Assembly (NCBI GenBank): GCA_040756735.1
Contig: JBFLYC010000020.1
Span: 114-64,113, forward strand
Source of the DNA: Bacillota bacterium
GTDB lineage: Bacteria; Bacillota; DSM-16504; Desulfitibacterales; Desulfitibacteraceae
DNA length: 64,000 nucleotides
Reading direction: 5' to 3'
The translations under genes were made by a program, and so were the position numbers. Shown here piece after piece: positions 21,971 to 46,191 of this stretch. Under the pieces are notes generated by a model. It did no database searches and was not told where the DNA came from. It saw only the letters and a program-made list of their open reading frames with translations. The stretch's first letter is position 1. Every line of letters starts with the position of its first letter.

Positions 21971-23788
21971 ATGAAAACAGTTAAAAAACTAGGATGTCTG
22001 CTCATGGTGATAGCGCTAATTATTGGTATTTTTGTGCCAATAAGCGGTTTCGCTGCCACCGAAACTACTACTATTGTTAATAATATAACAATGGTAAAAG
22101 AGAATTCGACAGAAGCAACTCAGTTGAATCAAGTTGATATTGTCACATTTAATGACTTCCATGGCAGCTTGGCAGAAGATCCCAGAGAAGGTAGAAATGC
22201 TGGTATGGCTAAGCTTGTAACTGCAGCTAGAGAAGCTTATGCAGCAAACCCTAATACCATAATTGTAGCTGGCGGAGATAACTACCAGGGTAGTGCATTA
22301 TCAAACTTGACCTATGGTGCACCTGTTTCAGCAATGATGAAGGCTATGGGAGTAACTGCTTCAGCTGTTGGAAACCATGAATTTGATTGGGGAGTTCACT
22401 TGATCGAACAGTGGGCTAGGGATGGTGGCTTTGAGTTCTTAGCTGCCAATATATATGACAAAGCCACTGGTGAACCGGTAACCTGGGCTAAACCTTATCT
22501 AATTATTGAAAAGGGTGGTATCAAGGTTGCTTTTATTGGGCTTGCCCATCCTGATACTGCTGTTTTGACAAAGAGGGAGTACGTTGAAGGAGTAGAGTTT
22601 ACTGATCCTGTTGAAGAAACAATAAAATGGGTTGAATATCTAAAAGATGGAAATGCACAAGCAGGAATACCCGATGTTATTATTGCTTTAACTCATATAG
22701 ATTCAGATCAGAACAGGGATACTAAAGAGATTACCGGTAATGTTGTTAAGCTGGCAAATAATGTTCCCGGATTAGATGCCATTGTATCCGGACATAGTCA
22801 TAGAAGTGTTGCCGGAACTGTAAATGGTGTAGCAATTGTGCAGGCAGGTGCCTATGGAAGAATGTTTGGCAAATTATCAATTATGTTAAATGAAGAAGGT
22901 AAAGTAATAGAAATTATACCTTCTCTTGATGATATATCCATGAGAAAAAGTGATATGATACCCAATCCAGAGGCTGCAGAACAATTTGAAACATTTAATG
23001 AAGAACTAAAGCCCATTCTCGAGGAACAACTGGGTACAGCAACTGCAGATTTTACCCATGACAGAACTCAGCCAAATGTATCATTGTTAGGCAAATGGGC
23101 TGCAGAAGTAATGAAAAAGAAAACAGGCGTCCAAGTGGCTATTCAAAATGGTGGCGGTTTAAGACGCACAATGGCTGAAGGCAAGATCACCATGGGTGAC
23201 TTATATGAGATAATGCCCTTTGATAATGGTCTGGTGACAATGGAACTCTCAGGTGCAGACCTTAAAAAAGCAATTGACCACGGTATCATGAATCCAAATG
23301 TTACAGATGGTCAATTTGCAGGGCTTATAGTTGTATTCGATGCAGAAGCGGAATTTGGCAATCGAATTGTTTCAATAACATTGGAAGACGGCACACCATT
23401 AGTAATGGATCAATACTATACGGTAGTTGTACCAGACTTTATTTTCACTGGTGGAGACAACTATGACTTCACGAATGCTAAAAATGTTGTAGAAACATAT
23501 ATTCCTGTAAGGGATATGTTGGTGGAAGCAGTAAAGGAAGCAAAAATATTAACTCCGGAACCGGTAACATACATAATTGAGAAATCTCAAGTTGCTGAAG
23601 TTGTTCAAGCGGTTATTGAAGAAGTTAAAGAGCCAGAAGTAATCATTTATGTAGTAAAAAGTGGTGATGTTCTTTCAAGAATTGCCAAAATGTTTAATAC
23701 CACTTATCAAAAACTGGCAGAATACAATGGAATTAAGAATCCACACTTGATTTTCCCAGGACAAAAAATTGAAATTCCTGTCCATTAA
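21971..23788 (+). CDS. secreted 5'-nucleotidase/metallophosphoesterase with C-terminal LysM cell-wall anchor
   Basis: Signal peptide MKTVKKLGCLLMVIALIIGIFVPISGFA. Metallophosphatase motifs VTFNDFHG, GGDNYQGS, GNHEFDWG, SGHSH. 5'-nucleotidase C-domain (IQNGGGLR, FTGGDNYDF). LysM YVVKSGDVLSRIAKMFNTTYQKLAEYNGIKNPHLIFPGQKIEIP. Confidence 0.9.
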   Translation: MKTVKKLGCLLMVIALIIGIFVPISGFAATETTTIVNNITMVKENSTEATQLNQVDIVTFNDFHGSLAEDPREGRNAGMAKLVTAAREAYAANPNTIIVAGGDNYQGSALSNLTYGAPVSAMMKAMGVTASAVGNHEFDWGVHLIEQWARDGGFEFLAANIYDKATGEPVTWAKPYLIIEKGGIKVAFIGLAHPDTAVLTKREYVEGVEFTDPVEETIKWVEYLKDGNAQAGIPDVIIALTHIDSDQNRDTKEITGNVVKLANNVPGLDAIVSGHSHRSVAGTVNGVAIVQAGAYGRMFGKLSIMLNEEGKVIEIIPSLDDISMRKSDMIPNPEAAEQFETFNEELKPILEEQLGTATADFTHDRTQPNVSLLGKWAAEVMKKKTGVQVAIQNGGGLRRTMAEGKITMGDLYEIMPFDNGLVTMELSGADLKKAIDHGIMNPNVTDGQFAGLIVVFDAEAEFGNRIVSITLEDGTPLVMDQYYTVVVPDFIFTGGDNYDFTNAKNVVETYIPVRDMLVEAVKEAKILTPEPVTYIIEKSQVAEVVQAVIEEVKEPEVIIYVVKSGDVLSRIAKMFNTTYQKLAEYNGIKNPHLIFPGQKIEIPVH

Positions 23789-23806
23789 AGAAACTGATAT
23801 ATATTT

Positions 23807-23844
23807 GCTAAAACGCTTTGTTCCTTGGAACAAAGCGTTTTAGC
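23807..23844 (+). terminator. terminator hairpin after the 5'-nucleotidase gene
   Basis: Perfect 18-bp arms GCTAAAACGCTTTGTTCC (23807-23824) and GGAACAAAGCGTTTTAGC (23827-23844). Confidence 0.6.
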
Positions 23845-23884
23845 TAGTCCATATTAATAATATACAGAAAATGAGGCGTGTCAG

Positions 23885-24342
23885 GTGAAACTCAATAAAT
23901 TGTTAATATCTGTAGTTCTAATTTCAATATTAATAAATAGTCTGTTTGCCTACCAGGCATATGGAGGAGACAAGACCTATAAAGAAGAGTTAACAGAATA
24001 CTATGAAAAGAAGATGGAAAAGCCTTTCTTTTTACTTATAGCTTTAGGCGGCTTAAAGGGAGCAAAAACAATCATCACCTTAGGCATTACTGGAATGATA
24101 ATCATTTTTGTATATATTCCCTATTAGGTGCCATCGGAGGAGTTTTTGTTGCAGGATTAATTGCTGGAGGGGCGATACATCTGATGCTTTTGTTTACAGC
24201 CTTTAAAATGACACCCAGAGAGATAGTTAATTTAGATTTGATAGCATCTGAAATAATTAGGGCTATGGCCGGAAGTATAGGCCTAATAAGCGCGATTCCG
24301 TTAACTGCATTTATTGGGGCCACCATGGGCAAAAAAAGGTAA
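23885..24342 (+). pseudogene. YibE/F-family membrane protein remnant (internal deletion plus frameshift)
   Basis: The first frame (23885-24127) matches the N-terminal TM region of the intact paralogue at 33602 (FFLLIALGGLKGAKTIITLGITGMIIIFVYIP vs GRIKGLKSIFSLIFTGIMIIFFLIPW). After the stop, another frame reads GAIGGVFVAGLIAGGAIHLM...IASEIIRAMAGSIGLISAIPLTAFIGATMGKKR*, the YibE/F C-terminal signature. Confidence 0.7.
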
Positions 24343-24537: not shown

Positions 24538-25338
24538 ATGAATGACATATTAATTGCAGTGATATTAGGCATAGTAGAAGGCTTAACTGAATTTATACCG
24601 GTTTCATCAACTGGTCACTTGATTATTGTAAGTAAGTTTGTAGAATTTGAAGGTCAATTTGCTACTACATTCAATGTTGTCATTCAAGTAGGAGCCATAC
24701 TCTCTGTAATAATTTATTTTCGGCGCAAACTCATTCCCTTTGGCAGGAACAAAACTATCTCGGAAAAGGCTTTGACATGGACCATTTGGAAAAAGACTAT
24801 TGTTGGTGTTCTTCCGGCGTTGTTTTTGGGCGCTTTATTTGGAAGCAAGATTGAGGAACTGCTGTTTAATCCTTTTACGGTATCCATTGCATTAGTTATC
24901 GGCGGAATATTTTTAATAATAATTGAAAAACAAAATAAATCAAATATCATTTCTTCCATTGAGAAATTGGATTATAAGACCGCATTTTTAATTGGAATTG
25001 TACAGTGTCTGGCCATGATACCAGGCACATCCAGATCGGCAGCTACTATAATAGGCGCAATGATTTTTGGATGCTCCCGTGTAGTAGCAGCAGAATTTTC
25101 CTTTTTCCTGGCTATCCCAACAATGATTGCCGCCTCTTCATATTCTTTGTTGAAATCAGGGTTTAGCTTAAATCTTATGCAAATCCAGACATTGTCTGTT
25201 GGATTTATAGTCTCGTTTATTGTAGCTCTATTAGTTATAGCAGGATTCATGAAGTATATTTCTCGAAACAGTTTCAAACCTTTTGGATATTACAGGATAT
25301 TGTTAGGACTGTTAGTAATTATATATTTTGCATTTTAG
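24538..25338 (+). CDS. uppP: undecaprenyl-diphosphate phosphatase
   Basis: 266-aa polytopic ORF. BacA/UppP motifs EGLTEFIPVSSTGHL and PGTSRSAATI. Confidence 0.93.
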   Translation: MNDILIAVILGIVEGLTEFIPVSSTGHLIIVSKFVEFEGQFATTFNVVIQVGAILSVIIYFRRKLIPFGRNKTISEKALTWTIWKKTIVGVLPALFLGALFGSKIEELLFNPFTVSIALVIGGIFLIIIEKQNKSNIISSIEKLDYKTAFLIGIVQCLAMIPGTSRSAATIIGAMIFGCSRVVAAEFSFFLAIPTMIAASSYSLLKSGFSLNLMQIQTLSVGFIVSFIVALLVIAGFMKYISRNSFKPFGYYRILLGLLVIIYFAF

Positions 25339-25424
25339 AATGTCATTAATGCCCTTCACAAATAAACTCTGCATCCTCCATTGTGTATTCTATTCCATGG
25401 GGGATTTTTATTTAAGGATAATAG

Positions 25425-25465
25425 CCCTTTGCACCTCATAGGACATGCAAAGGGTTTTGATTTTC
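25425..25465 (+). terminator. rho-independent terminator after uppP
   Basis: CCCTTTGCA (25425-25433) and TGCAAAGGG (25446-25454), followed by TTTTGATTTT. Confidence 0.75.
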
Positions 25466-25844
25466 TTAAAATACTCAGGGCAATATTTTTTGCATACATG
25501 GCGCTGGCAACTTTTATGAGGTTTATGATTTGTTATCTCATCCAAAAGGTAGCAGCCATCAGCAATAGCAGCCTGGAAATTGAACATTACAAAAATTAAT
25601 ATTGGTTTAATATGCCTTTTACCCTATATTTACTTTTTTATAACATGATATAGACAAAAAATTAACAGGGAGGACATATTAGGCATTGACGTAGCATGGG
25701 AGTGGCACACCTGTGAAAATAAGATGGCCGAAAGAATGAGTGTCTAGCTCCTGATGAGGGGTAAAATTTTAAAATTTTATGTTTTCCAAGCAGGATAAAT
25801 CCAAATTTTGTAGAATTAATATTGCGAACAAAAGTTATATACAA

Positions 25845-25858
25845 TGAACAAATGTTCA
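25845..25858. promoter_or_regulatory. TGAACA-N2-TGTTCA operator-like box (copy 2)
   Basis: TGAACAAATGTTCA within the identical 16-mer ATGAACAAATGTTCAA (25844-25859). A GAACAAA half-site lies ~20 nt upstream (25825-25831). It is ~200 nt upstream of the giant gene. Confidence 0.55.
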
Positions 25859-26055: not shown

Positions 26056-29000
26056 ATGCAAGGTAAAATACATAAAGGATTAAGTGTTTTATTGATACTT
26101 ACAATGCTTTTTAGTAGTCTATTTACTTTTTCTGACATTGGATTTATGTATGCAGAGGAAACACCACAATGGTTTGTTGAAACCTTTGATAATTGTGGAA
26201 ATACTGGAACAAGCTATACCACTGGGCACTTTGAAGGTAATTATGGAATCAGATGGGACTATATTGCTGCAAGAGGTAATTTAGATAATTATTCTATTGA
26301 TGGAAAAGGCTTAATGATTAGAAATGCATCTGAAAATGGTAAAATCTATGCTGAGTCTATTCCAGGGGGTATAGGAAGTTTTTCTGTTGACTTAAAGAAG
26401 GCCTTTACAGGTACAGCAGAACGTACAGTGCAGTTATTAATCAATGATATAATTGTGGATACATTCACCCTTGCACAATATGATCCTGAGACATTCCCTG
26501 TTCAGCAATTTGTAGTAACAGATATTAATGTTAGCGGTGATTTTAAATTAGAATTAAGGCACACGAATCCTTTAAGTGCACAAATTACCATCGATAACAT
26601 TAGATGGACCAGCTACACTGGTAACGGTGAAACACCACCACCAAACCTTACTCTCACCCATAACCCGGTAACAACTGCATGGGCAGGAGACGATATTAAC
26701 ATAGACTTTTCAGTAAATAATGCTATAGGTACCGTGACAGGTCATGTATACTATAAACCTGTAAGTGATAACGATTTTACTCCTATTAGCACAACCTCCA
26801 GTGCCATAATACCTGGTGATGAAGTAACAGAAAATATTGAATATTATATAGTAGTTGAGGACCAGGATGAAAGGGTGGCAAGAAGCCCGGAAACAGGGTT
26901 TCATGTTATTTCTGTCATGGAAAAACCAGAGCTGATAACCATAGCAGAAGCCAGATCCCTATCAGCTTCAACTGAAGTTAGAGTGGAGGGTATCATTACA
27001 GCTATCTTAGGCAGTGGACAAAATGTATATATTCAGGACGAGACTGCCGGCATAGTGATTAGATTAGGCTCTGCAGCCTTAAGCACAGGCTTGAGTGAAG
27101 GCGACAAAATCCAGGCAATTGGAACAATTGGAAGTTACGCCGGACTTGTTCAAGTAAATGTTGCCAATAAAATTGATTTAAAAACCGTAGAAGAAGGTGT
27201 AGGTGTACCTGAGGCAAAGCTTGTGACGATAGATGAAATCACCTCTAACCTGCAAGGACAGCTGTTAAAGGTAGAAGGTTTAGAGGTTGTTTCAATCGGC
27301 GCCCAAACACCTAATTATAATGTTGTTGCTAAAGATTCAGCAGAAAATCAAATCTTTTTAAGGGTTGAGAATACTGTTGACAAAACATTTTTCAATGTAG
27401 GTCAAGAACTTACTGTCACTGCTCCATTGGGTCAGTATAATGCTGATTTTCAATTAATGATCCGCAGAGCATCAGACTTAGAAGAGCTTGTTGATGAGTC
27501 AAAAGCAGCTCCGGTAACAGCCACACCGGAAGCTGGAGCAGTTGATGCAGGTACAGCAGTTACTTTATCGACAGTTACAGAAGGAGCAACAATTTACTAT
27601 ACAATAGGCGAGGGCGAGCCTCAGACTGAATATACTGAACCTATTATAATAAATATAGCAACAATAATTAAGGCTAAGGCAGTAAAGGAAGGTTTGGAAG
27701 ATAGTGAAATCCGCACCTTTGTTTACACAGTAAAGCAAGAGGGAGTATTATCTATTCTGGACGTTAAAAAGCTTCCAGTGAATACTGAGGCAGAAGTACA
27801 AGGTGTTGTAACGTTAGTTACCCACACAAATGAAGCTTATATTCAAGATGAATTGGCAGGATTGCAGGTTTTTATTTCTAATATCAAGAATAAAGTAAAA
27901 CCTGGTGATCTAATCAAGGCTAGAGGAAAAGTTTCACAATATAACGGTGAGTTGCAAATTGTTCCAAACTCATTAGATGACATAGATATACTAAGCAGTG
28001 ATAATCCTGTACCTGAGCCCTTAGAAGTAACCCTGCAGCAGCTTGTTCAAACACAGGGCCGTGTTACTGTAAGTCAAGCTCTGGATAATTACGCAGGAAA
28101 CGAAAAAACAATTACAGTAAGGGGTGTAATTACAGACGTCTTGCCAAATGGTGTATATGCTATGCAAATTGCAGATCCTACTGATCCAACAAAGGTATTA
28201 TCAGTTGCCTTACCTGCAGAATATAGAGAGAAATTTAATCCGGGCAATAATCCTGATGCAGTTGGCAGAATGGTGCTGGTAACAGGACAGGAGAAAGACT
28301 ATTATGGCAAGCCGGCAATAAGAAGAGTAGATAAATATGATCCCAATACTGGTATAACAACATATGGCAAATATCATGTTGGCTTTGATATTGAAGGTAT
28401 GAGGGTAACCACTGAGCCTTTTAAGGTTATTGCAAAAGACAATAATGGATTTACAGCTCGACAAGGGGATGTTGAAGTATATATATTCACGTTAAGGGCA
28501 TCAAACTATAATCATGTTGAAACAAAAATTGGTGACTGGTATTCCGCCACGGGAATTGCCGCTTACTACAATAGACCCCAGCTTAAGCTGGTAGATGGCA
28601 CGGATTTAAAATTCGAAGTTCCTCCTGGACAACAGGATCCTAGAGAACCTTTGGTCTTGGATATTAAACCAGGCAATTTTGTCTCTACATACGATAGAAG
28701 ACCATTGATTTCAGCAAGACTGGAAAAAACTGAAGCAGACATTGATTATGAAAATGTTAGATTGCTACTTAATGGAGAGAGTAAAGAATACACATTGGAT
28801 ATTGAAACAGGGATCATCACTTATCAGATTACTGAAGACCTGGACTATGGTGAGCATGATGTAGCAATTGTTGTTCCAGATGTAGAGGAAAGGGTGAAAA
28901 TATTTAACTGGTTCTTTAGAGTTGAAAAGGAAAATCCAACCTATAACTTCTACTATGGTATTCCCCACTCCCATACCGGGTACTCAGATGGCGCTGGGAC

Positions 29001-32000
29001 TCCGACAGCGGCCTTCAACCATGCCAAGAATAATAAATTGGACTTTCTATTTATCACTGATCACTCTAACTGGCTGGATGGTGTAGAAGAAGGGGGCGGC
29101 TATGGTTTTGAATATGAAGCAGCTGCCAATGAATACGTAGAAAAATTTAATCCGTTTACTGATGAGCCTTCCGAATGGATGAAGACAAGATTAGAGGCAG
29201 AAGCATTTAATCGAGAAAACCTTGGCACTTTTCTAGGGGTAAGGGGCTTTGAAATGACCTCCAGTACATGGGGGCACATGAATACAACTAATAGTGATAC
29301 CTATGTTGAAGCTAAAAAACAAATAGTATCCATTAGCCAATATTATGATTGGATTGTGGATGTGTCCAGCAGACCTGGGGCTAATGTATATAATGCATTC
29401 AACCACCCCAATTGGCCGGATGATTCTTTTAATAACCTGGCTTATGTACCAAAACTGGATAGATATATTAATGGAATTGAAGTTGCCAATGGAGCGCCGC
29501 CATATAGCTATTCCAGAGCTGAAGGGCACTATTGGAGATCCCTGGATAATGGATGGAGATTAGGGGCACTAAATGCTCAAGATAACCATGCGAAAAACTG
29601 GGGAGATCCGGATACATTAACAGTGGTTTTAGCAGAGGCCTTGGATGTAGATTCCCTTATCAACGCAATGAATGCAAGAAGATCCTACTCAACTGAAACA
29701 AGAACCCTGCAGCTGACTTTTAAAGGCAACGGTTATTGGATGGGTAGTGTTCTAGATGTTGAGATAGGTGAAAAAATAAACCTTGAGATCCTTGCTGAGG
29801 ATTCAAAGGTACCTATTGAGAAGCTTCAATTGATCACAAATGGTGGGTATATATTAGAAGAAAAAGTAGTTGGCGGGGCAAACAGTGCAGCATGGAACCT
29901 GGCAGTGGAAGCAACTGGAGGAGCCCAATGGTTTGTGGTAAAAGTAATCCACAGTAACGGGGCATGGGGTCATTCATCACCAATATTTACCACTGCCGGT
30001 GAAAATGATATAAAGCTTACAGCCATTAACGTTGACCCTAATCCCACTTTGCCGGGCTTTGAAACAAATATTGAAGCTACTGTAAGTAACATGGGGGTTA
30101 GAGGTATAGAAGGAATTCAGGTGAAATTCTATGCCAACACTATAAATGAAAACAACTTGATAGATACAGTAGACCTGGAAGGCAGACTCAATCCAGGCGC
30201 CAGCGCTGTATTAAGCGCAAAATGGCTGCCTGAAGGATACGGTGAGCAGCGGGTATTTGCAGTATTAACAGATATAGAAGGAGTAACCACTGTCACAGAG
30301 ATATCCATGAATGTAAAGGTTGTTAAACCAATAGGCAAAAAGATACTGTTTGATGGGGCTCATAACAATGCAGATGTACCGGGTACAGTTGTTAAAATAA
30401 TTGAAATGTTAAGATTGTACGGATATGAAGCTACAATAAACACACAAAAATTTACGCCAGAGCTTCTAGAAAGTGTAGATATTTTAATTATCAATATTCC
30501 ATTGAATGCAGCCAATAAATTTACAACTAATGAAGAAGATGCTATAGCTGATTGGGTTAAAGCAGGTGGTTCCATCATGCTGGCAGCCAAGTCCAATTTT
30601 AATCAGGATAGCACATTATTGAACAGTCTCATGGAAAAGCTGGGAAGTAGCATCCGCTTCAATGACGATAATATATACGAACCGGAAGATTCTGGCAAAT
30701 ATACGGGTGGAATGGTTTGGTCCATAGTAATGGATAATCTGCCACCAACTGAAAGTGGATTAAATGCCAACATGGAGGCCATACGAATATTCAGTGGATG
30801 TTCTTTGATAAATGCAGAGGGTGGGCCACTAGTAAATGATCCGGCAACAGAGCTGGAAATACTGCTATTGGCAAACGATACTTCATATACGGCTAACCCA
30901 GGACCTAATGCATATATTTACAATTTGATAGGAGAATTAAATGGCGGCACAATTCCTGTTATTGCCAAAGAGAAGGTTGGAAATGGTAGAATAATTGCAG
31001 CCGGAAGACACTTCTATTCAGATTTTGAAATAGGAAATAATGTTTCAAACACTGCATTGACTTTACAGGCAATTGACTGGCTGGCAGGATACGATAGAAT
31101 ACGGTCAATTGCTGATATCAGGGCTAATGCAAATGTGGGAGATGTTGTAACTGTTAGAGGTACTATCACAGCACCTACCAATCATTTTTTTGATGTAGTA
31201 TACATTCAGGATGAAACTTCAGGGGTAGCAGTATATGGTTCGCAAACGAAGGATAACCTGCCCCTGGGAACAGAAATTATAGCTACCGGTAAGGTAACGT
31301 ACTTCGAAGGAGAACTGGAATTAGCTTATGAGAACTATGATTACGAAGTAATTTATGTAGGTCCGGTAGAAAAGATAGAACCCTTGAAGGTATCCACCAA
31401 AGATGCCATGTCACCAGAGGTTGCGGGAATGCTTATAACCACTCAAGGAGTAATAACTGATTACGACCCGGTTGACGGTAACTTCAGAATTAATGATGGA
31501 AGCGGCAGTGCTTTCGTTCAAATTGATGGTTATCTAAACCTTGGAATTGAAAGATTTAAAATAGGAGATAATGTGTCAGTAACCGGTGTGGCATCCCACG
31601 GTTCCGTTGGTCCTAGAATCAGGGTGAGATATCCATCTGATTTGAAAGCTGTACAGCAAGAACCACCGGAGAAAGTAGAGATTAAAAGCGTAGAAGCAAC
31701 CAATGGACAAATAACAATAACATTGAATACAGCACCGGCAGAAGCACCAGATGAAAAAGACTTTACGGCAACAATAAGCATAAATGATGGAGAGGCAAAA
31801 GAATTAAAGCTAGAACATTTCTACTACGACGAAGATGTAACCGTAACCTTCACCTTTACTCCGGTAGCTGCAACAGAAGAAGAACAAAGAGTGATAGTTG
31901 CAGTAGCCTATGGTGATGGAACACCATGGGCTGCACAACCCTATACCATTGAAGCAGGGGACAGATCACAGTTCAATATAACTACTATTAGTAAACCTTC

Positions 32001-33507: not shown

Positions 33508-33535
33508 AGTAATATAAATATAAAACAAGATAAAT

Positions 33536-33567: not shown

Positions 33568-33601
33568 AAACTGTTCTTTTTAAACAACGTGGAGGGTAAA
33601 T

Positions 33602-36410: not shown

Positions 36411-36498
36411 CTGACAGTAATTGAGAAAAAAAATTGTTAATCAAGGAGGAATTTTAAATAAAACGACGAATATGTATATGAACAAAATACCAAGATGT

Positions 36499-36512
36499 TG
36501 GACATTTGTTCA
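36499..36512. promoter_or_regulatory. TGAACA-N2-TGTTCA operator-like box (copy 3, inverted, 1 mismatch)
   Basis: TGGACATTTGTTCA is the reverse complement of TGAACAAATGTCCA. It also pairs with TGAACAAAAT at 36479-36488. It ends 32 nt upstream of the punA ATG. Confidence 0.5.
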
Positions 36513-37363: not shown

Positions 37364-37495
37364 CATTTTTTATATTTATTAGGCAGGAATTTTTGCTTCC
37401 CATGAAGAATTAAAAGTTAGACGAACAAATAATCCTATTTCTGAACAAAATTTCATTTCAACGATTTAGTGATCGGTTGACAAAGGAGATGTCGA

Positions 37496-38167
37496 ATGCA
37501 AACTAAAGATATTGCTCAATATATTGATCATACCTTACTAAAACCGGAGGTGACCAGGAGGCAGATTATCAAACTTTGTGAGGAAGCCCAGGAGTATGGA
37601 TTTGCTTCAGTATGCGTCAACCCTTGTAATATAAATACTGCGTACCAGCAATTAAAGGGCAGTGGAGTTAAGATATGTACTGTCATCGGCTTTCCCCTGG
37701 GAGCTACTATTACAGCAGTAAAAGCATTTGAGACAAGAGAAGCGATTGCAGCCGGAGCTGAGGAGATAGACATGGTTATCAATATCGGTGCGCTGAAGGA
37801 CAGGAATGAGGTGTATGTTCACAATGATATTGAAGCAGTAGTCAAGGCGGCCCAGGGTAAGATTGTTAAAGTTATTATAGAAACGGGCCTGTTAACAGAT
37901 GACGAAAAGGTGCTGGCCTGCCAATTGGCCATGAGAGCCGGCGCTCATTTTGTTAAAACATCTACCGGATTTAACGCCAAAGGAGCAACGGAAGAAGACG
38001 TTCGGCTGATAAGAGATGTAGTTGGCTCCGAAATAGGTGTTAAAGCATCAGGAGGGGTCAGGTCCCTGAATGAGTTATTGGCTATGCTGGAAGCTGGAGC
38101 TACCAGAATCGGCACCAGCTCGGGGGTAGCCATTATCAATGGGAATGGAATAGAAGCTGCATATTAA
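37496..38167 (+). CDS. deoC: deoxyribose-phosphate aldolase
   Basis: 223 aa. [33 protein letters not shown] (Schiff-base Lys), VKASGGVR. Confidence 0.94.
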
Positions 38168-38329: not shown

Positions 38330-38728
38330 ATGGAAAATCTGGAAGAAAAGTTAATTGAGTTAGCGTTAAAAGCAAAGGAAAAAGCTTATGTCCCCTATTC
38401 CAAGTTTCGGGTGGGAGCAGCTCTACTGACTGAATCGGGGGAAATTTTCACCGGATGCAATGTGGAGAACGCTTCCTATGGTTTGACCAACTGTGCCGAG
38501 AGGACTGCTGTCTTTAAAGCTGTCAGCGAGGGGCATACCAGATTCAAAGCGATAGCAGTGGTTGCAGATTCAAAGCAGTATGTCTCCCCCTGTGGTGCAT
38601 GCCGTCAGGTGCTTGCCGAGTTTGGCCAGGATATACAGGTAATAATAGGTGATGCTGCAGGGAACTTTTTCAGTAAAACCGTTAGTGATCTGTTACCTTT
38701 TACCTTCACTAACAAGCAAATGGATTAA
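38330..38728 (+). CDS. cdd: cytidine deaminase
   Basis: ORF-track start 38246 trimmed to ATG 38330 (132 aa, the usual Cdd size). Zinc motifs CAERTA and SPCGACRQ. Confidence 0.9.
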   Translation: MENLEEKLIELALKAKEKAYVPYSKFRVGAALLTESGEIFTGCNVENASYGLTNCAERTAVFKAVSEGHTRFKAIAVVADSKQYVSPCGACRQVLAEFGQDIQVIIGDAAGNFFSKTVSDLLPFTFTNKQMD

Positions 38729-38872: not shown

Positions 38873-39964
38873 ATGTTCGGTAAACGGATAAGGCCTATTT
38901 TGGCGCTGTTGTTGGTAATAATGATAGTTGTTGCTGGCTGTGGAGGTGCCGGGTCCAAACCTGCAGATCAACAACCAGTATTGAAGGTTGGCATGGTTAC
39001 AGACGCAGGAACCATTGACGATAAGTCCTTTAACCAGGGTACATGGGAAGGTGTACTTAAAGCTACTTCAGACTTTGGTTTAGAGAAAAGATATTTAAAA
39101 CCTGCAGGTACAACGGAAGCAGATTACATAAAAGAAATAGGCAACTTATACGATGCTGGTTTTAAATTGATTGTTTGTCCTGGATTTAAGTTTGAGACAG
39201 CAATTTTTCAAGCTCAGGATAAATATCCAGATGCCAAATTTGTTTTGCTTGATGGTTATCCCCATGCCGGAGATTGGAATCCGGTTGTTAAAGAAAACAC
39301 AGTTTCAATCTTTTTTGCCGAGCATGAATCAGGATTCTTGGCCGGTGTTGCAACCGCATTGCAACTGAAGGATGGAGAAGCCGGCTTCATTGGCGGAATG
39401 GAAATACCTGCAGTTCAGAAATTCAACTGGGGTTTCCAACAGGGCATCCAGTATGCAAATGATAACTTTGGCACAAATATGTCTATTAAGGCAGAAAATG
39501 TTGTGTATCAAGGAAGTTTTGATAATGTAGCTGCAGGTCAGCAGTTGGCTGCACAGATGTATGATAAAGGAGTAAAAGTTGTATTTACAGCTGCCGGTGG
39601 AGTGGGTGTAGGCGCTATTAATGAGGCAAAAACAAGAGCCAAGGCTGGTAGTGAAGTTTGGATTGTCGGTGTTGACGTTGACCAGTATGCAGAAGGTATT
39701 TATGAGGGCAACAAATCAATTATTCTTACTTCAGCAATGAAATGTATCGACCAGGCTGCTTATGATATGATTAAAGCTGAAAAGGAAGGCAAATTCCCCG
39801 GGGGAGAAATCCTTACTTTTAGTGCGCAAAATGACGGTATAGGTATACCTGCTGAAAACCCAAATCTTAGCAAAGATGTTGAAAGCAAGGTTGCAGAAGT
39901 TTTTGCACAATTAAAATCAGGCAGCCTTAAAGTATCAGATGTTCAAGGAGACTTGATTAAGTAG
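38873..39964 (+). CDS. BMP-family (Med/PnrA/NupN-like) nucleoside-binding lipoprotein of an ABC importer
   Basis: Start set at ATG 38873 (RBS GAGGAGG 38857-38863). Lipobox VVAGCGG. BMP-family stretches VTDAGTIDDKSFNQG, FAEHESGFLAG, GVDVDQY. Confidence 0.9.
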   Translation: MFGKRIRPILALLLVIMIVVAGCGGAGSKPADQQPVLKVGMVTDAGTIDDKSFNQGTWEGVLKATSDFGLEKRYLKPAGTTEADYIKEIGNLYDAGFKLIVCPGFKFETAIFQAQDKYPDAKFVLLDGYPHAGDWNPVVKENTVSIFFAEHESGFLAGVATALQLKDGEAGFIGGMEIPAVQKFNWGFQQGIQYANDNFGTNMSIKAENVVYQGSFDNVAAGQQLAAQMYDKGVKVVFTAAGGVGVGAINEAKTRAKAGSEVWIVGVDVDQYAEGIYEGNKSIILTSAMKCIDQAAYDMIKAEKEGKFPGGEILTFSAQNDGIGIPAENPNLSKDVESKVAEVFAQLKSGSLKVSDVQGDLIK

Positions 39965-40067: not shown

Positions 40068-41603
40068 ATGGAGTATGTTGTAGAAATGCAAAAAATTCGC
40101 AAAGAATTTCCCGGCGTAATTGCCTGTGATGATATAACCCTCCAATTAAAAAAGGGAGAAATTCATGCATTGCTGGGTGAAAATGGTGCAGGCAAGTCTA
40201 CTTTGATGAGTGTGCTTTTTGGCTTGTATCAACCGGATAGTGGTGTTATCCTCCTTAGAGGAAAGAAAGTTCACATTGCTAATCCCAACATTGCCAATGA
40301 CCTTGGAATTGGAATGGTACACCAGCACTTTAAGCTTGTACACAATTTTACCGTTACTGAAAATATCATTTTGGGTTTTGAAACAACAAAAGGACTAGTA
40401 GTCGATGTTCGTTCTGCTGCTAACCGTATACAGCAGCTTTCGGAACAATATAAACTCAATGTAAACCCCCATGCTAAAATATCTGAAATTTCAGTGGGGA
40501 TGCAGCAGCGTGTAGAAATCATTAAAATGCTTTATCGCAATGCGGATATTCTCATATTTGATGAGCCCACGGCGGTTTTGACTCCCCAGGAAGTAAAAGA
40601 ACTCATGAAAATAATGAAGGACCTAATTGCAGAAGGCAAGTCAATTATTTTAATCACCCATAAGTTAAAGGAGATTAAGGCAATTGCAGATCGTTGCACA
40701 GTCATTCGCAGGGGTAAGTTGATCGATACAGTTAGTGTAGCAGCTACCTCTCAAGAAAGATTAGCAGAAATGATGGTTGGACGTAAGGTTTCTTTTAAAA
40801 CAGAAAAAGAAAAAAGAGCTCCCGGGGAGACTATTTTGAGCCTGGAAAAGCTGTCTGTACGTAACCACCAGGGAGTTTTAGGATTAAAGAATTTCTCTTT
40901 AGAGGTACGCCGTGGGGAGATAGTTGGTATTGCCGGTGTTGATGGTAATGGGCAGGAAGAGCTTGTGGAAACCCTGATAGGACTAAAAAAGGCCGAGACC
41001 GGCGCCATATTTTTTAAGGACCTGAATATTACAAATCTATCCATACGGGATAGAATTAAGGAAGGTATGGCTCATATACCTGAAGATAGGCATAAGCATG
41101 GTTTAATTTTGGACTATACAATTGAGGAAAATTTGATTCTCTTAATTTATTATCAGGAACCATTTTCAAAAAACGGGCTTTTAGATTGGGACAGAATCCA
41201 CCAACATGCAGAAAAAGTAGTAGGGGAATTTGATGTTCGTGCCGGTCAAGGTATTGCAGCATCTGCTCGATCCCTTTCTGGTGGAAACCAGCAAAAGGCT
41301 ATAGTCGGACGCGAAATTGATCGAGATCCAGATCTGTTGATTGCGGTCCAACCTACAAGGGGGCTGGATGTAGGAGCAATAGAATATATTCATAAAAGGC
41401 TGGTGGAACAAAGGAATAAAGGGAAAGCCGTACTCTTGGTATCCTTAGAATTGGATGAGATACTTGACATATCTGACCGCATTGCATGCATAAACAATGG
41501 AGAATTAATTGGAATTGTTAATGCTGATGAAACCAATGAAAATGAAATCGGGTTAATGATGGCTGGCGTAAAGAGAGGTGTTACCCTTGAACCTAAAGAT
41601 TAA
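40068..41603 (+). CDS. ABC transporter ATP-binding protein with two fused NBDs (nucleoside/sugar type)
   Basis: 511 aa. First Walker A GENGAGKST, signature ISVGMQQRVEI, Walker B ILIFDEPT. Second NBD GVDGNGQEE, LSGGNQQK. Confidence 0.92.
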   Translation: MEYVVEMQKIRKEFPGVIACDDITLQLKKGEIHALLGENGAGKSTLMSVLFGLYQPDSGVILLRGKKVHIANPNIANDLGIGMVHQHFKLVHNFTVTENIILGFETTKGLVVDVRSAANRIQQLSEQYKLNVNPHAKISEISVGMQQRVEIIKMLYRNADILIFDEPTAVLTPQEVKELMKIMKDLIAEGKSIILITHKLKEIKAIADRCTVIRRGKLIDTVSVAATSQERLAEMMVGRKVSFKTEKEKRAPGETILSLEKLSVRNHQGVLGLKNFSLEVRRGEIVGIAGVDGNGQEELVETLIGLKKAETGAIFFKDLNITNLSIRDRIKEGMAHIPEDRHKHGLILDYTIEENLILLIYYQEPFSKNGLLDWDRIHQHAEKVVGEFDVRAGQGIAASARSLSGGNQQKAIVGREIDRDPDLLIAVQPTRGLDVGAIEYIHKRLVEQRNKGKAVLLVSLELDEILDISDRIACINNGELIGIVNADETNENEIGLMMAGVKRGVTLEPKD

Positions 41604-42645
41604 TAATGAATATGTATTGGCCCTGGTGGCTGTAGTATTGGGATTATTGGCGGGAGGAATTCTTATGCTGGTTGCAAAGAATAATCCCATTGAAGGTTTT
41701 ATATATTTATTCCGTGGTGGACTAATGAGCCTTGAACGTATAGGCAACACCCTGGCTACTGCCACACCTCTAATTTTTACAGGGCTTTCCGTGGCATTTG
41801 CTTTTAGGACCGGTCTATTTAATATTGGCGCTGCTGGTCAAATGTTAATTGGTGGTCTTTGTGCCATTGCTATCGGACTCACCTTTGCATGGCCTAAACC
41901 CTTACTGCTTACTGTCATGCTTGTTGCTGCAATGATTGGTGGAGGATTATGGGCTTCTTTGTCCGGTTGGTTGAAAGCTAAATTTAATGTTCACGAAGTT
42001 GTTTCCACTATTATGATGAATTGGATAGCTTATTGGACAGTTTATTATGTAGTGCCGAGATACTTTAAAGGCGATTTTATGGAGACGGAATCCAGAAGAA
42101 TTCCCTATGAAGCATCATTAAAGGTTCCCTGGTTGACTGATTTATTTAACGGATCTTATATTAATCTAGGTATATTCTTGGCTATTATATTTGTTATTAT
42201 TATTGCATTCATTCTAAATAGGACAACCTTGGGTTATGAATTAAAGGCTGTTGGGTTTAATAGACACGCGGCTGAAACTGCAGGTATAAATGTTAATAGG
42301 AGTGTTATTCTTGCAATGACCATTGCCGGTGCTTTGGCAGGTCTTGGTGGCGCCACTTTTTATGTTGGATATGCTTCCAATATGCAAATAGGGGTTTTGC
42401 CATCCCATGGTTTTGACGGGATTGCAGTGGCCCTGTTAGGCGCTAATTCACCTGGAGGCGTTTTAGGGGCAGCCGTTTTTTTCGGCCTGCTTCACACTGG
42501 AAAGGGTTTTATGAATGCTATGACTAATATACCTCCTGAGATAGCTGATACAATTATTGCAACTATAATTTATTTCTCAGCTACAAGTATACTGATTCAG
42601 AGATACTGGGAGAAGCTGAAGAAAAAGTTGGGAGGTGCAAAGTAG
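41578..42645 (+). CDS. ABC transporter permease (first of two)
   Basis: Polytopic ~350 aa of the BMP-importer permease type (FNIGAAGQM, GFDGIAVALLG). Start is uncertain: GTG 41578, or TTG 41587 with better spacing from GAGAGGTG. Confidence 0.85.
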   Translation: MLPLNLKINNEYVLALVAVVLGLLAGGILMLVAKNNPIEGFIYLFRGGLMSLERIGNTLATATPLIFTGLSVAFAFRTGLFNIGAAGQMLIGGLCAIAIGLTFAWPKPLLLTVMLVAAMIGGGLWASLSGWLKAKFNVHEVVSTIMMNWIAYWTVYYVVPRYFKGDFMETESRRIPYEASLKVPWLTDLFNGSYINLGIFLAIIFVIIIAFILNRTTLGYELKAVGFNRHAAETAGINVNRSVILAMTIAGALAGLGGATFYVGYASNMQIGVLPSHGFDGIAVALLGANSPGGVLGAAVFFGLLHTGKGFMNAMTNIPPEIADTIIATIIYFSATSILIQRYWEKLKKKLGGAK

Positions 42646-42646
42646 C

Positions 42647-43594
42647 ATGCTTTCCATTATCTTGGTGATTTTCCCATATGCCATTGCTTATACCATTCCC
42701 TTGCTGATTACAGCCCTTGGAGGTTTGCATAGTGAACGAAGCGGTGTTGTCAATATAGGCCTTGAAGGTCTTATGGTAATAGGCATGTTTACCGGGGCGC
42801 TGGTGATTTCCCAATTAGAGATGTCTTTTCCTGGTACTGCTATATGGATAGGTCTGTTAGCCGCATTTATTGCTGGAGCTGTTTTTTCTCTGTTGCATGC
42901 TTTTGCCTGTATCACTCTTAATGCCAATCAAGTTATTAGCGGGATTGCAATTAACATGATTGCCGGGGCTCTGACCACCTATTTGGCCAGAAACATTACC
43001 GGCAGTGGCAATATTCAGATAGTTCACGGACTTGGCAGGCAGAATATCCCGGTATTATCTGATATTCCAATCCTGGGCAAATTGTTTTTTACAATGAGTT
43101 ATCCCACAACATGGGTTGTTGTAGGAATTCTCATTATTTCCTGGTTTATCTTGTATAGGAGACCCTTTGGGCTGCGCTTGAGGGCCTGTGGTGAACATCC
43201 ACATGCAGCTGATTCTGCGGGCATAAATGTTTATTTAATGCGTTATATCGCTGTTATGATATCTGGAGCATTTGCAGGACTTGGAGGAGCCATCGTTATT
43301 GTTACATATTCCGGTGAATTTAATGGGACTGCAGCGGGTCTTGGATTTCTTGCTCTTGCTGCATTAATATTTGGACAGTGGAAGCCCCTTGGTATACTTG
43401 GTGCAACACTGTTTTTCGGATTTGCCAGTACTGTTGCTAATGTATCTCAAGTTATTCCAGCCTTGGCAGTGATTCCTGGCATTATCCTGAAAACCTTTCC
43501 TTATATCTTTACTCTAATTGCATTGGTGATTTTCTCGAAATCTACCCAGGCGCCCAGGGCCCTTGGGGAACCATACGACAAAGGTAAACGGTAA
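42647..43594 (+). CDS. ABC transporter permease (second of two)
   Basis: ATG 42647 lies 1 nt after the upstream stop, with RBS GGAGG 42631-42635. Polytopic (NIGLEGLM, RACGEHPHAADSAGINV). Confidence 0.88.
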   Translation: MLSIILVIFPYAIAYTIPLLITALGGLHSERSGVVNIGLEGLMVIGMFTGALVISQLEMSFPGTAIWIGLLAAFIAGAVFSLLHAFACITLNANQVISGIAINMIAGALTTYLARNITGSGNIQIVHGLGRQNIPVLSDIPILGKLFFTMSYPTTWVVVGILIISWFILYRRPFGLRLRACGEHPHAADSAGINVYLMRYIAVMISGAFAGLGGAIVIVTYSGEFNGTAAGLGFLALAALIFGQWKPLGILGATLFFGFASTVANVSQVIPALAVIPGIILKTFPYIFTLIALVIFSKSTQAPRALGEPYDKGKR

Positions 43595-43680: not shown

Positions 43681-43766
43681 GAATACAGAAGTCAGAATAC
43701 AGGAGTAAGTAAAGGTACTGAATTTATTCTGAATTCTGGCTTCCGAATTCTGTATTCTGACATTCA
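43681..43766 (+). repeat. palindrome built from heptamer repeats (CAGAATA / TATTCTG) in the pdp 5' leader
   Basis: Left side: CAGAAGT-CAGAATA-CAGGAGT. Right side: TATTCTG-AATTCTG-GCTTCCG-AATTCTG-TATTCTG. Perfect 12-bp arms GTCAGAATACAG (43691-43702) and CTGTATTCTGAC (43750-43761). No T-run follows. Confidence 0.6.
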
Positions 43767-43859
43767 TGGTAGAATCCTGAGCTAAGTGCATAGTCAGTAA
43801 ATTTTATTATCGTCGTGTATTATGTAGAAAGATTATAGCCTATAAAAGGAGGTGCCTGC

Positions 43860-45191
43860 TTGAGAGTATATGATTTAATATTAAAGAAGAGGAACGGGTA
43901 TGAACTAAGTCGGGAAGAAATCAAGTTTTTGGTGTCAGGATATGTTAAAGGCATTATTCCCGACTATCAAATTGCCGCTTTTAACATGGCTGTTTATTTT
44001 CAGGGATTAACCAGGGAAGAAACCCTGCAATTAACCCTGGCCATGGTGGAATCAGGAGATCAGGTGTCTTTAAAAGAAATTCCAGGTATTAAGGTTGATA
44101 AGCATAGTACAGGAGGGGTAGGGGATACCACTACCTTGGTTCTGGCTCCTCTGGTTGCAGCAGCAGGAGTCCCGGTGGCCAAGATGTCAGGGCGAGGGCT
44201 GGGTCACACCGGAGGTACCATTGATAAGTTTGAGGCTATCCCAGGGTTCAAAACAAGTTTGTCAATTGATGAAATGATAGCGGCAGTTAAGACGGTTGGC
44301 GTTGCTGTAGTTGGTCAGACTGGAAACCTGGTGCCGGCAGATAAAAAGCTATATGCCCTGCGGGATGTTACCGCCACTGTAGACAGCCTGCCGCTTATTG
44401 CCAGCAGTATTATGAGCAAAAAATTGGCTGCCGGTGCAGATGCCCTGGTTCTTGACGTGAAGACAGGTGACGGCGCTTTCCTCAAAGATCTGGAGGAGGC
44501 CTTTGCCTTGGCAGAAATTATGGTGGAAATTGGTCAGGATGCAGGCCGGGAGACGGTGGCAGTCATCACCAATATGGATCAGCCTTTAGGGAAAGCTGTT
44601 GGCAATTCGCTGGAAATAGAAGAAGCCATTTTAACACTGCGGGGAGAAGGCCCGGCAGATCTTAAGGAGCTTTGCATAGTCTTGGGAGCGCAGATGCTAT
44701 ATCTGGCCAAGGCGGCTGACAGTGTCACGGCCGCCAGGGATAAGCTGGAAAAGGTGATTGCCAGTGGAGCAGCCTTGGCCAAGCTGAGAGAATTGATCAA
44801 ATCTCAGCAAGGAGATGAGCGGGTTGTGGATGATATGACCCTCCTGCCACAGGCCGCTAATAAAATTTCAATATTATCATCCAAAGCCGGATACATTCAG
44901 CGCATCAAGGCAGAGTCAATAGGCATAGGGGCTATGATGCTGGGAGCTGGTCGTGAGACAAAGGATTCAGCTATTGACCTGGCAGTAGGTATAACACTGG
45001 AGAAAAAGGTGGGAGACAGGGTTGAAGCTGGAGCAGAATTGGCTGTTCTCCATGCTAATGATGCTCAAGGCAATGAAAAAATTGCCGCAGTCCAGCAAAT
45101 GTTGTTAAGCGCTTATGAGATAGGTCCTGAGCCAGCTGAAAAGCCAAAGCTGGTGCAAGGGTATGTGGACAAAAACGGGCGAAAGAGCTAA
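43860..45191 (+). CDS. pdp: pyrimidine-nucleoside (thymidine) phosphorylase
   Basis: 443 aa, TTG start with RBS AAAGGAGG. Motifs [26 protein letters not shown], and a C-terminal alpha/beta domain. Confidence 0.93.
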
Positions 45192-45222
45192 AGCTAAACC
45201 AGTATAAGAGGGTGAAAGTAAA

Positions 45223-46191
45223 ATGACAAAAGTTTCTTCAGATAAAATTCAGATGGCTGTTCAGGCAGCACGTTTATACTATGAGTGCGATGAAAACCAG
45301 CAACAAATAGCCAAAAAACTAAATATTTCGCGGCCTCAGGTTTCCAGGTTGTTGAACCTGGCCCGGGAAGAAGGAATAGTGGAAATTAGAATTAACAGTC
45401 CCCTGGAAACTTACTCCAGGCTGGAAAATATTTTGTGTCATCACTTTGGTCTGAAACAGGTAATAGTTGTTCCAATGTCAACTACCGATAGCAATTTGGT
45501 CAAAAAGAATCTGGCCAGGGTGACGGCTAATTTTTTAGATCAAATAGTGGAAAATGGCCAGATTATTGGTATTCCATGGGGTTCAACCCTCAGTTATGTT
45601 GCCAAGTATTTGAAAGAACGGGAGACGAAGGATATCACTATCGTCCAGTTAAAGGGAGGAGTGGGGCGTATCTCCGGCAAAGTAGATACTTATCACCCGG
45701 TGATTACCTTCGCTCACAAGTTAAAAGCTACACCCTGTTTTTTACCGGCGCCAAGCATAGTTGACAACCTCCAAGTAAAGGAGATTCTAATGTCAGATGC
45801 CAAGATTAATGAAATACTGGAACTGGGAATAAAAGCAGATGTGGCTATTTATCCTATTGGCATTCCTGTGCCTGATTCAGTTTTGGTGCAGGCCGGATAC
45901 TTTACCCAAGAAGAGATGATTACTCTGCAAGAAAAGGGAGCAGTGGGGGATATATGTTCACGGTATTTTCTTGCCAATGGAGAAATTGTTGACCAGGATT
46001 TAAATGACCGCACCATTGGCATTGAGCTGGACAAGCTCCAGCTGAAAAAGTATGCCATAGCCGTTGCCGGAGGCAAAGACCATGCTCCGGGAATTTTAGG
46101 AGCTTTACGAGGAAAGTATCTCAACACTTTGATTACCGATGAGGCAGCAGCTCTTGAGGTAATCAAGCTGGCGGGAATAAAATCTGGTTAA
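45223..46191 (+). CDS. deoR: SorC/DeoR-type sugar-phosphate-binding transcriptional repressor (deoxyribonucleoside regulator-like)
   Basis: 322 aa. N-terminal HTH AARLYYECDENQQQIAKKLNISRPQVSRLLNLAREEGIV and a SorC-type effector domain (IGIPWGSTL, VQLKGG). It is the last gene of the nucleoside cluster, as with B. subtilis DeoR. Confidence 0.85.
   Translation: MTKVSSDKIQMAVQAARLYYECDENQQQIAKKLNISRPQVSRLLNLAREEGIVEIRINSPLETYSRLENILCHHFGLKQVIVVPMSTTDSNLVKKNLARVTANFLDQIVENGQIIGIPWGSTLSYVAKYLKERETKDITIVQLKGGVGRISGKVDTYHPVITFAHKLKATPCFLPAPSIVDNLQVKEILMSDAKINEILELGIKADVAIYPIGIPVPDSVLVQAGYFTQEEMITLQEKGAVGDICSRYFLANGEIVDQDLNDRTIGIELDKLQLKKYAIAVAGGKDHAPGILGALRGKYLNTLITDEAAALEVIKLAGIKSG

Follow-up and report, generated by a model that had tools for sequence, protein, structure and literature searches.

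A candidate surface nucleic-acid scavenging locus with DeoR-type operators in a Desulfitibacteraceae genome

In a 64,000-nucleotide stretch of contig JBFLYC010000020.1, from an uncultured Bacillota bacterium of the family Desulfitibacteraceae (the window, to which all coordinates refer), genes for surface-anchored phosphoesterases stand within 24 kb of a nucleoside importer, nucleoside-degrading enzymes and a DeoR repressor. Do these genes form one unit that harvests extracellular nucleic acids, or is this a nucleoside operon that happens to have surface enzymes as neighbours? The analysis favours the first answer, a surface nucleic-acid scavenging unit under the control of DeoR, with a probability of roughly 55%. 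The evidence that carries this reading is a composite operator of DeoR type, which precedes both intact surface phosphoesterase genes and two genes of nucleoside breakdown.

Gene calls were made from the open reading frame listing and from Pfam and NCBIfam scans of the window; every gene named in the original prediction, which was made from the DNA letters, was checked in this way and is present. The genes of the proposed pathway are as follows.

21971 to 23788, + strand: secreted LysM 5'-nucleotidase, with Metallophos, 5_nucleotid_C and LysM domains and a Sec signal peptide
26056 to 33507, + strand: SLH-anchored PHP-OB protein of 2483 residues (the giant)
36545 to 37363, + strand: punA, purine nucleoside phosphorylase
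37496 to 38167, + strand: deoC, deoxyribose-phosphate aldolase
38330 to 38728, + strand: cdd, cytidine deaminase, with its likely ATG at 38330
38873 to 39964, + strand: Bmp/PnrA-like substrate-binding lipoprotein, lipobox VAGC
40068 to 43594, + strand: ATP-binding cassette (ABC) importer, with a double ATPase (40068-41603) and two permeases (41578-42645 and 42635-43594)
43860 to 45191, + strand: pdp, pyrimidine nucleoside phosphorylase
45223 to 46191, + strand: SorC-family DeoR repressor

A composite operator before surface and nucleoside genes

The shared box of the original prediction proved to be real, and larger than a single palindrome. The sequence TGAACAAATGTTCA occurs exactly at 21873, upstream of the nucleotidase gene, and at 25845, upstream of the giant gene; it recurs with one mismatch at 36499 (punA) and with two at 37442 (deoC), and a scan of the window yields seven strand-hits against 0.77 expected. 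Alignment of the four upstream regions reveals an additional half-site, GARCAAA, positioned exactly 12 nt upstream of the palindrome in 4/4. The complete composite, GARCAAA-N12-TGRACA..TTCA, is found four times in the window against an expectation of 0.01, always on the + strand, in intergenic DNA and 5' of a + strand gene.

21854 to 21886, + strand: composite operator 5' of the nucleotidase gene (half-site GAGCAAA, 12 nt, palindrome TGAACAAATGTTCA)
25826 to 25858, + strand: composite operator 5' of the giant gene
36480 to 36512, + strand: composite operator 5' of punA (GAACAAA-N12-TGGACATTTGTTCA)
37423 to 37455, + strand: composite operator 5' of deoC (palindrome TGAACAAAATTTCA)

The operator of Bacillus subtilis DeoR, ATTGAACAAAATTTCAAT-N14-TGTTCAA, which was established by experiment, likewise consists of a palindrome and a repeated half-site and is bound by a tetramer, which is released by deoxyribose-5-phosphate, an effector known for B. 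subtilis DeoR only (PMC11229326). All 14 positions of the deoC palindrome agree with the core of the dra operator in B. subtilis (14/14), and in the nucleotidase and giant sites the right half is TTGAACA, the half-site with base contacts in the crystal structure. Upstream of the giant gene, a promoter-like sequence (TTAATA-18-TACAAT, 25816-25845) holds the half-site in its spacer, and the palindrome begins at the last base of the -10 hexamer; such a placement, with the palindrome at the start site, would be a repressing one.

The local repressor closely resembles B. subtilis DeoR, with a near-identical helix-turn-helix. B. subtilis DeoR (8r7y) is its best match in the PDB (253 bits, E 2.7e-74), the recognition helices being NISRPQVSRLL in the window protein and NISRPTVSRLL in B. 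subtilis, and it has the N-terminal helix-turn-helix and the SorC domain of the family (Pfam Sugar-bind, 239 bits). The NCBIfam equivalog model scores 348.6 bits, below its cutoff of 420, so that strict orthology is uncertified. A single-protein search for DeoR loci returned one locus, in an unrelated Clostridia metagenome-assembled genome (MAG), where GAACAAA-N12-TGAACAATAGTTCA lies directly 5' of a deoR-bmp pair (L010, 1242-1274); this unit adjoins a gene for an IF-2B/MtnA-like isomerase. The four sites in the window are very probably DeoR operators. Since the same composite stands before the surface genes and the deo genes, sequence argues strongly that both intact surface phosphoesterase genes are coregulated with the deo genes in this genome.

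It could be proposed instead that the palindromes are LexA (SOS) boxes, which would place the surface genes under induction by DNA damage. Both perfect sites, those of the nucleotidase and giant genes, do contain the Gram-positive SOS core GAAC-N4-GTTC, of which there are three in the window. The punA and deoC sites, however, lack a perfect core and yet carry the same extra half-site at the same fixed spacing, an arrangement that fits a tetramer such as DeoR but not the dimer of LexA. On either side of the core stand T/A and not the C/G of CGAAC-N4-GTTCG, the downstream genes are classic DeoR targets, and the same composite precedes deoR-bmp in the Clostridia MAG. LexA control was judged unlikely, since half-site, flanks and targets all fit DeoR.

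Exact scans of public collections with the composite were uninformative. They gave three matches in genome contigs, which look like chance (the one in L008 belongs to a PTS/HAD locus), and 18 in metagenome contigs, none of them with nucleoside genes. When the palindrome was relaxed and 1.28 Mb of fetched loci were scanned, no other phosphoesterase gene proved to have a DeoR-like site on its 5' side; a hit at position 7688 of L113 is doubtful.

The PHP-OB giant

The giant begins with a signal peptide (residues 1-33, read from the sequence), followed by DUF5689, CHB_HEX_C, OB and DUF6359 domains, of which the OB-type modules (DUF5689, OB and DUF6359) extend over ~295-760. Next are the PHP/CehA-McbA domain (~960-1270), a beta-sandwich/CARDB region, a GIFT-like domain (~1430-1700) and two further OB folds (~1745-1870), and an Ig/FN3 stalk leads to three SLH repeats (2300-2483; 148.7 bits over three stretches). 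The OB match reaches 37 bits against a Pfam cutoff of 27, and the PHP/CehA-McbA match 93 bits against the cutoff of 80 for NCBIfam NF038032. A Sec signal peptide together with three C-terminal SLH repeats is the arrangement of an SLH-anchored surface protein. The proposal that the S-layer itself serves as a capture surface over-reads these repeats, which indicate only anchoring to a cell-wall polymer.

The active site of the PHP domain is intact. The metal-ligand set HxH, D, H, E, H, H, DxH is complete (alignments A2 and A3), and its residues (H971, H973, D978, H1003, E1066, H1074, H1117, D1176 and H1178) do not vary among 15-16 homologues, the most distant at 25% identity. An AlphaFold2 model of the PHP domain alone (pLDDT 77.5, pTM 0.82) retrieved only PHP structures with Foldseek (E 1e-10 to 1e-4). 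The nearest are 3e38 and 2anu, followed by PsfC, RNase AM, the PHP domain of Pol III alpha, EndoQ, pAp phosphatase and PolX; the characterised neighbours are mostly phosphoesterases acting on nucleic acids or nucleotides. The same search with a 925-residue core was swamped by Ig-like matches to transglutaminases, and a PDB sequence search with the PHP domain gave nothing useful.

The domains around the PHP domain are those of extracellular nucleases. The giant carries the accessory modules of ExeM/NucH proteins (DUF5689, OB, DUF6359); it has no match to the EEP models PF03372 or PF19580 of Pfam, and thus lacks the ExeM/NucH catalytic domain, and NF033681 reaches only 31 bits against a cutoff of 300, confined to the OB region. 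The DUF5689/CHB_HEX_C/OB/DUF6359 module recurs in EEP 'extracellular nuclease' proteins of Bacillaceae (P0013, P0015, P0038) and in SLH proteins of Paenibacillus in which an EEP nuclease is fused to a 5'-nucleotidase in one chain (P0062, P0078). Other members of the PHP-core family carry Metallophos or LTD, lamin-tail, domains (P0359, P0209). Such combinations suggest that Firmicutes draw on a modular set of surface esterases for nucleic acids. The family sharing the core of PHP, beta-sandwiches, GIFT-like domain and two OB folds consists mostly of proteins of 1300-3200 residues. With representatives clustered at 50% identity, it comprises 217 clusters at E<=1e-30, a number that rises to 1243 at E<=1e-10; no characterised member was found.

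Fold and domain company together make nucleic acids or nucleotides the probable substrates of the giant. The original view of it as a nucleic-acid-binding phosphoesterase therefore keeps its structural half, the nuclease-type accessory modules and the intact PHP site, while the substrate is a matter of association. It could also be directed elsewhere, with modules that bind another polymer or serve adhesion and a PHP domain that cleaves another ester. The two nearest structures, 3e38 and 2anu, are without an assigned function, and the CehA/McbA name of the NCBIfam model stems from carbamate (carbaryl) hydrolases. Surface proteins related to glycans often contain GIFT-like, CHB_HEX_C and CARDB domains, and certain Bacteroidales proteins repeat the OB/CHB_HEX_C module with no catalytic domain at all. 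Set against this are the company that the same accessory module keeps with EEP nucleases, LTD domains and 5'-nucleotidase fusions, an OB match that passes the Pfam cutoff, the DeoR-operator wiring in this genome and a YibE/F partner in common with CpdB-type enzymes (see below). A function unrelated to nucleic acids is consequently regarded as improbable.

YibE/F partners and the assembly of the cluster

Between and around the pathway genes lie the following features, several of them decayed.

23797 to 23854, + strand: terminator-like hairpin with 28-nt arms, after the nucleotidase gene
24022 to 24336, + strand: decayed remnant of a YibE/F gene
24538 to 25338, + strand: bacA/uppP, a passenger gene unconnected with the pathway
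25423 to 25520, no strand assigned: ~100-nt copy of the deoR/gdh junction, a rearrangement scar
33535 to 33568, + strand: hairpin with a 15-bp stem, between the giant gene and yibEF
33602 to 34768, + strand: intact YibE/F family membrane protein
34778 to 35197, + strand: HepT-like protein of 139 residues (weak match)
35240 to 35497, - strand: second YibE/F pseudogene remnant, the C-terminal ~87 residues, divergent from the CpdB stub
35604 to 36170, + strand: dead stub of a CpdB-type 2',3'-cyclic phosphodiesterase/3'-nucleotidase, 188 residues

The YibE/F gene downstream of the giant gene is part of a wider pattern. A genome scan with an alignment of the family (PF07907) returned 80 loci (L039-L118), in which the immediately adjacent genes were examined. 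YibE/F adjoins a secreted metallophosphoesterase in 60 of these (75%), and by type the neighbours are purple-acid-phosphatase-like enzymes (35), PHP-OB giants (16) and CpdB/5'-nucleotidases (10); assignment to the first class was confirmed by Pfam in 10/10 cases tested and made for the remainder by BLAST to the catalytic region. The CpdB/5'-nucleotidase pairs occur in Treponema, Cetobacterium, Psychrilyobacter, Propionigenium, Vibrio owensii, a Clostridiales isolate and an Atribacterota MAG, and the pairs as a whole span Clostridia, Bacilli, Spirochaetes, Fusobacteria, Vibrio and Atribacterota. Seen from the giant family, YibE/F is the immediate neighbour in 9/13 distinct contexts, down to 25% identity, and the conserved unit is the giant plus YibE/F. 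Besides L039-L118, the observations on YibE/F cover L011, L013, L016-L019 and L119.

The same association accounts for the remnants in the window. In an Alkaliphilus MAG an intact YibE/F gene directly follows the orthologue of the nucleotidase gene, which explains the remnant at 24022-24336. Taken with the second remnant and the intact gene, this indicates that each of the three surface esterases of the window has, or formerly had, a YibE/F of its own.

The membrane-embedded residues M267, D268, M271, E279, D302, T306, M307 and N309 are invariant in YibE/F, and such Met, Asp, Glu and Asn residues would suit a metal or anion site. Since the three types of partner are all exported, contain multinuclear metal centres and release phosphate, YibE/F may serve to load metal into the exported enzyme or to capture the phosphate that is released. 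A PDB sequence search returned no solved relative, and a literature search on the family found no functional account.

These partners raise a further explanation of the locus, namely that the surface genes are general phosphate-harvesting modules, a secreted metallophosphoesterase plus YibE/F, which yield inorganic phosphate (or in which the partner loads the metal cofactor), that their main control is by phosphate status and that their adjacency to the deo genes is secondary. The three kinds of neighbour and the essential absence of nucleoside genes from the 80 YibE/F loci would agree with this. So would an OmpR-type response regulator and a HAMP-PAS histidine kinase (PhoR/PnpS/WalK-like) that are encoded at 16517-18954, 3 kb upstream of the nucleotidase gene. 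These two proteins score below every curated cutoff, however, and no Pho box was identified in the locus, whereas the DeoR-type operators before both surface genes are exact and have the architecture of the punA and deoC sites. We regard phosphate harvest as the main function as a possible but somewhat doubtful account; it is compatible with nucleoside use, and the two are not mutually exclusive. A PIN-PhoH protein is encoded downstream of the cluster (53182-54531). A link to phosphate limitation through it or through the two-component system is possible; with the latter below all curated cutoffs, a Pho connection cannot be claimed.

How the genes came together can be read in part from their scars. 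The deoR/gdh junction at 46202-46300, ~100 nt comprising a terminator hairpin and the 3' end of gdh, is copied just 5' of the giant promoter at 25423-25520 with ~78% identity. The stretch flanked by these direct repeats, 20.7 kb reaching from the giant promoter to deoR, may have been inserted or relocated in one piece. The CpdB stub corresponds to residues ~50-270 of CpdB proteins of ~640 residues; it lacks a signal peptide and everything downstream of the N-terminal part of the catalytic domain, in agreement with its earlier description as decayed. Two YibE/F remnants, the stub and the duplicated gdh end all point to a recent assembly, and we read the clustering as lineage-specific, with the DeoR sites kept by selection.

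Close orthologues of the giant (56-72% identity) are present in five genomes: two Alkaliphilus species, one Alkaliphilus MAG and two Caloranaerobacter. None has nucleoside genes, the nucleotidase or a DeoR-like palindrome within 10 kb of the orthologue, and seven contexts of more distant homologues gave the same negative outcome. The best nucleotidase orthologue (71% identity) is in the Alkaliphilus MAG, the nearest relative available, on the same 516-kb contig as the giant orthologue and ~180 kb from it, among cobalamin genes and with no box; a second, in Anaerosalibacter, is likewise unlinked. The HepT-like gene (HepT/DUF86) lies directly upstream of the giant orthologue in 4/5 of the related genomes, and in the window it follows yibEF. 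Its relatives are 54-64% identical (L001 13031-13429, L003 9372-9764, L004 391-801, L005 8864-9247); no adjacent partner nucleotidyltransferase gene was found and a PDB sequence search gave nothing useful. The context of one homologue (P0002, L016) has pyrB, pyrC, pyrK, pyrD, pyrF and pyrE at 13384-18480, ~4.5 kb downstream. This is the only nucleotide-related neighbour in any other giant context and is probably coincidental.

Could the adjacency in the window be coincidental as well, independent units having been joined by rearrangement? The scars and the lack of conserved synteny are what would then be expected. The nucleotidase and giant promoters are also ~70% alike over ~110 nt, so that their boxes could derive from one duplication rather than from independent selection and be inert relics of a duplicated promoter segment. 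Yet the 16-nt box has remained identical while its flanks diverged to ~70%, a pattern that selection on the box would produce; the half-site and the 12-nt spacing have been retained too, and the same architecture precedes punA and deoC, outside any detectable duplication. Coincidence is accordingly thought unlikely.

Several observations nevertheless weigh against a single scavenging unit under DeoR. All 12 other contexts of giant homologues (72% to 25% identity) are without nucleoside genes and without a DeoR box within 10 kb, and so are both nucleotidase-orthologue contexts. Conserved linkage of giant orthologues to nucleoside genes, which the original prediction would need, is thus absent in every case examined, and the regulatory coupling that it proposed is well supported by sequence in this genome, where the composite operator recurs, but not in the 12 giant and two nucleotidase contexts elsewhere. 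No operator was found upstream of pdp-deoR, and the two surface-gene boxes may have a single origin, as discussed above. A phosphopentomutase gene (deoB/drm) was found by domain scans in none of the window's open reading frames of at least 150 residues, so that the deo catabolic path is incomplete locally, and the enzyme must be encoded elsewhere in the genome. YibE/F pairs also with non-specific purple-acid-phosphatase-like enzymes, which points to phosphate or metal, rather than nucleosides, as the common theme. The nearest PHP structures, without an assigned function, and the carbamate-hydrolase origin of the CehA/McbA name count in the same direction. Lastly, the sequence was matched in DNA metagenomes only (groundwater, biofilm), and no RNA runs were found.

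The complete path from outside to inside that had been envisaged is therefore not present. Besides the missing deoB, the third esterase is dead and domain scans recognised no endonuclease domain in the cluster; bacA, YibE/F and the HepT-like gene, unrelated or unexplained and absent from the original prediction, interrupt the series.

Other features of the region touch on nucleotides or on regulation. An imperfect 29-nt inverted repeat with repeated CAGAATACAG / CTGTATTCTG motifs (43681-43757) lies in the 266-nt gap between the second permease gene and pdp; the 265-nt stretch upstream of pdp folds no better than shuffled sequences (z = -0.76), and an Rfam scan of 20-48 kb found no riboswitch or leader. 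The window further encodes a membrane protein with a 'nucleoside recognition' Gate domain (5550-6872), a PucR-family regulator of the purine-catabolism type (59247-60944) and, at its end, another calcineurin-like phosphoesterase (63042-63980).

Proposed pathway and its place among known systems

Most likely, one SorC-family DeoR would control four promoters within 24 kb, those of the nucleotidase gene, the giant gene, punA and deoC, the last of which probably also drives cdd and the genes of the Bmp lipoprotein and ABC importer downstream. The four or five OB-type modules of the giant would bind extracellular nucleic acid, and its trinuclear-metal PHP domain would cut phosphoester bonds. The nucleotidase would then strip phosphate from the released nucleotides. 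It combines the Metallophos catalytic and 5_nucleotid_C substrate-binding domains of the UshA/YfkN/CpdB family, scores 607 bits with a YfkN-type subfamily model, matching the 5'-nucleotidase half, and has widespread orthologues. Nucleosides would be imported by the Bmp-ABC system, whose Bmp lipoprotein, duplicated ABC ATPase and two BPD_transp_2 permeases are those of a Bmp/PnrA nucleoside importer, and would be degraded by PunA, Pdp, Cdd and DeoC, with phosphopentomutase encoded elsewhere. By analogy with B. subtilis, deoxyribose-5-phosphate would free DeoR from its operators, and a product of DNA would thereby induce more surface enzyme. The giant and the nucleotidase would each belong to an older two-gene module of a secreted metallophosphoesterase and YibE/F, which in relatives stands elsewhere and without a DeoR box.

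In sediments and biofilms, extracellular DNA and RNA are scavenged as a major source of phosphorus, nitrogen and carbon, and the surface nucleases of anaerobic Firmicutes are largely unidentified. If the proposed wiring is correct, a DeoR regulon that reaches the cell surface would amount to a product-induced feed-forward loop; if it is a local accident, what is left is an ordinary nucleoside operon with interesting neighbours. A study by DNA stable-isotope probing described DNA-consuming Fusibacteraceae with wall-bound nucleotidases and nucleoside transporters and no known nuclease, and suggested unknown enzymes (PMC8289736). The PHP-OB giants, a large uncharacterised extracellular family, are candidates for the nucleases of these organisms. 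More speculatively, they may be a new class of cell-surface nucleases or phosphodiesterases and supply the 'unknown enzymes' of DNA-consuming Clostridia (PMC8289736), working with YibE/F as a partner required by three unrelated kinds of secreted metallophosphoesterase, for metal loading or phosphate capture, and wired here to DeoR so that the breakdown products of DNA induce their own harvest; as a whole this is a tentative proposal, and we hold it with some doubt. In any case, the rule that YibE/F stands beside a secreted metallophosphoesterase makes the function of this family experimentally approachable.

DeoR operons and Bmp-ABC importers are textbook systems. Importers of the Bmp/PnrA type include PnrA of Treponema pallidum and NupNOPQ of B. 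subtilis; the window version, with its Bmp lipoprotein, double ABC ATPase and two BPD_transp_2 permeases beside cdd, deoC and pdp, has nothing unusual.

The closest regulatory counterpart is the DeoR/dra-nupC-pdp system of B. subtilis (PMC11229326), which has in common with the window a SorC-family repressor with a near-identical recognition helix, a TGAAC..TTCA palindrome with a repeated half-site about two helical turns away, and deoC (dra) and nucleoside-use genes as targets. The window has four operator-bearing promoters, in contrast with one in B. subtilis. Its operator is flipped relative to transcription, with a half-site offset of 20 bp rather than 22 bp, its transporter is Bmp-ABC instead of NupC, and its regulon is apparently extended to two secreted surface enzymes.

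The use of extracellular DNA by Vibrio cholerae and Shewanella involves the nucleases Xds/Dns or ExeM, the phosphatases CpdB and UshA, and nucleoside uptake (PMC4714964, PMC3212620). The outside-to-inside logic is the same as that proposed here: a secreted nuclease, then a nucleotidase, then uptake of nucleoside and phosphate. In these Gram-negative bacteria, however, the enzymes are periplasmic or secreted, with catalytic domains of the EEP or Endonuclease I type; their genes are dispersed, without forming a cluster, and are controlled by phosphate status (PhoB) and quorum sensing, with no sensor of deoxyribose phosphate (PMC4714964, PMC3212620).

YhcR of B. subtilis is a wall-anchored nuclease, and YhcR-like proteins also carry a 5'-nucleotidase domain. 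Wall-anchored nucleases with OB folds are known in Firmicutes, among them proteins of the ExeM/NucH type and streptococcal SsnA/SWAN (PMC4118848, PMC9744736). Like the giant, the ExeM/NucH, YhcR and SsnA/SWAN proteins are large and surface-anchored and combine OB modules (and LTD, DUF5689 or DUF6359) with a phosphoesterase domain; they differ in using EEP or SNase catalysis and sortase anchoring, where the giant has PHP/CehA-McbA and GIFT-like domains and SLH anchoring. The two Paenibacillus proteins P0062 and P0078 come closer in being SLH-anchored, in carrying the DUF6359/CHB_HEX_C module and in placing nuclease and nucleotidase functions at the cell surface. They join EEP and Metallophos/5_nucleotid_C in a single polypeptide, have no PHP domain and are uncharacterised database entries. 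PHP nucleases and phosphatases (RNase AM/TrpH, Pol III alpha, PolX, EndoQ and the pAp phosphatase Cv1693) share the fold and the full set of metal ligands with the giant, at 10-19% identity and moderate TM-scores; these enzymes are all cytoplasmic and either small or parts of polymerases, and none is extracellular or fused to OB or SLH domains.

The cluster is thus best described as a lineage-specific variant of established nucleic-acid scavenging routes and not as a new category. It appears to differ from the known systems in three respects: a DeoR regulon that apparently reaches secreted enzymes, an SLH-anchored giant whose catalytic domain is PHP in place of EEP or SNase, and the partnership with YibE/F.

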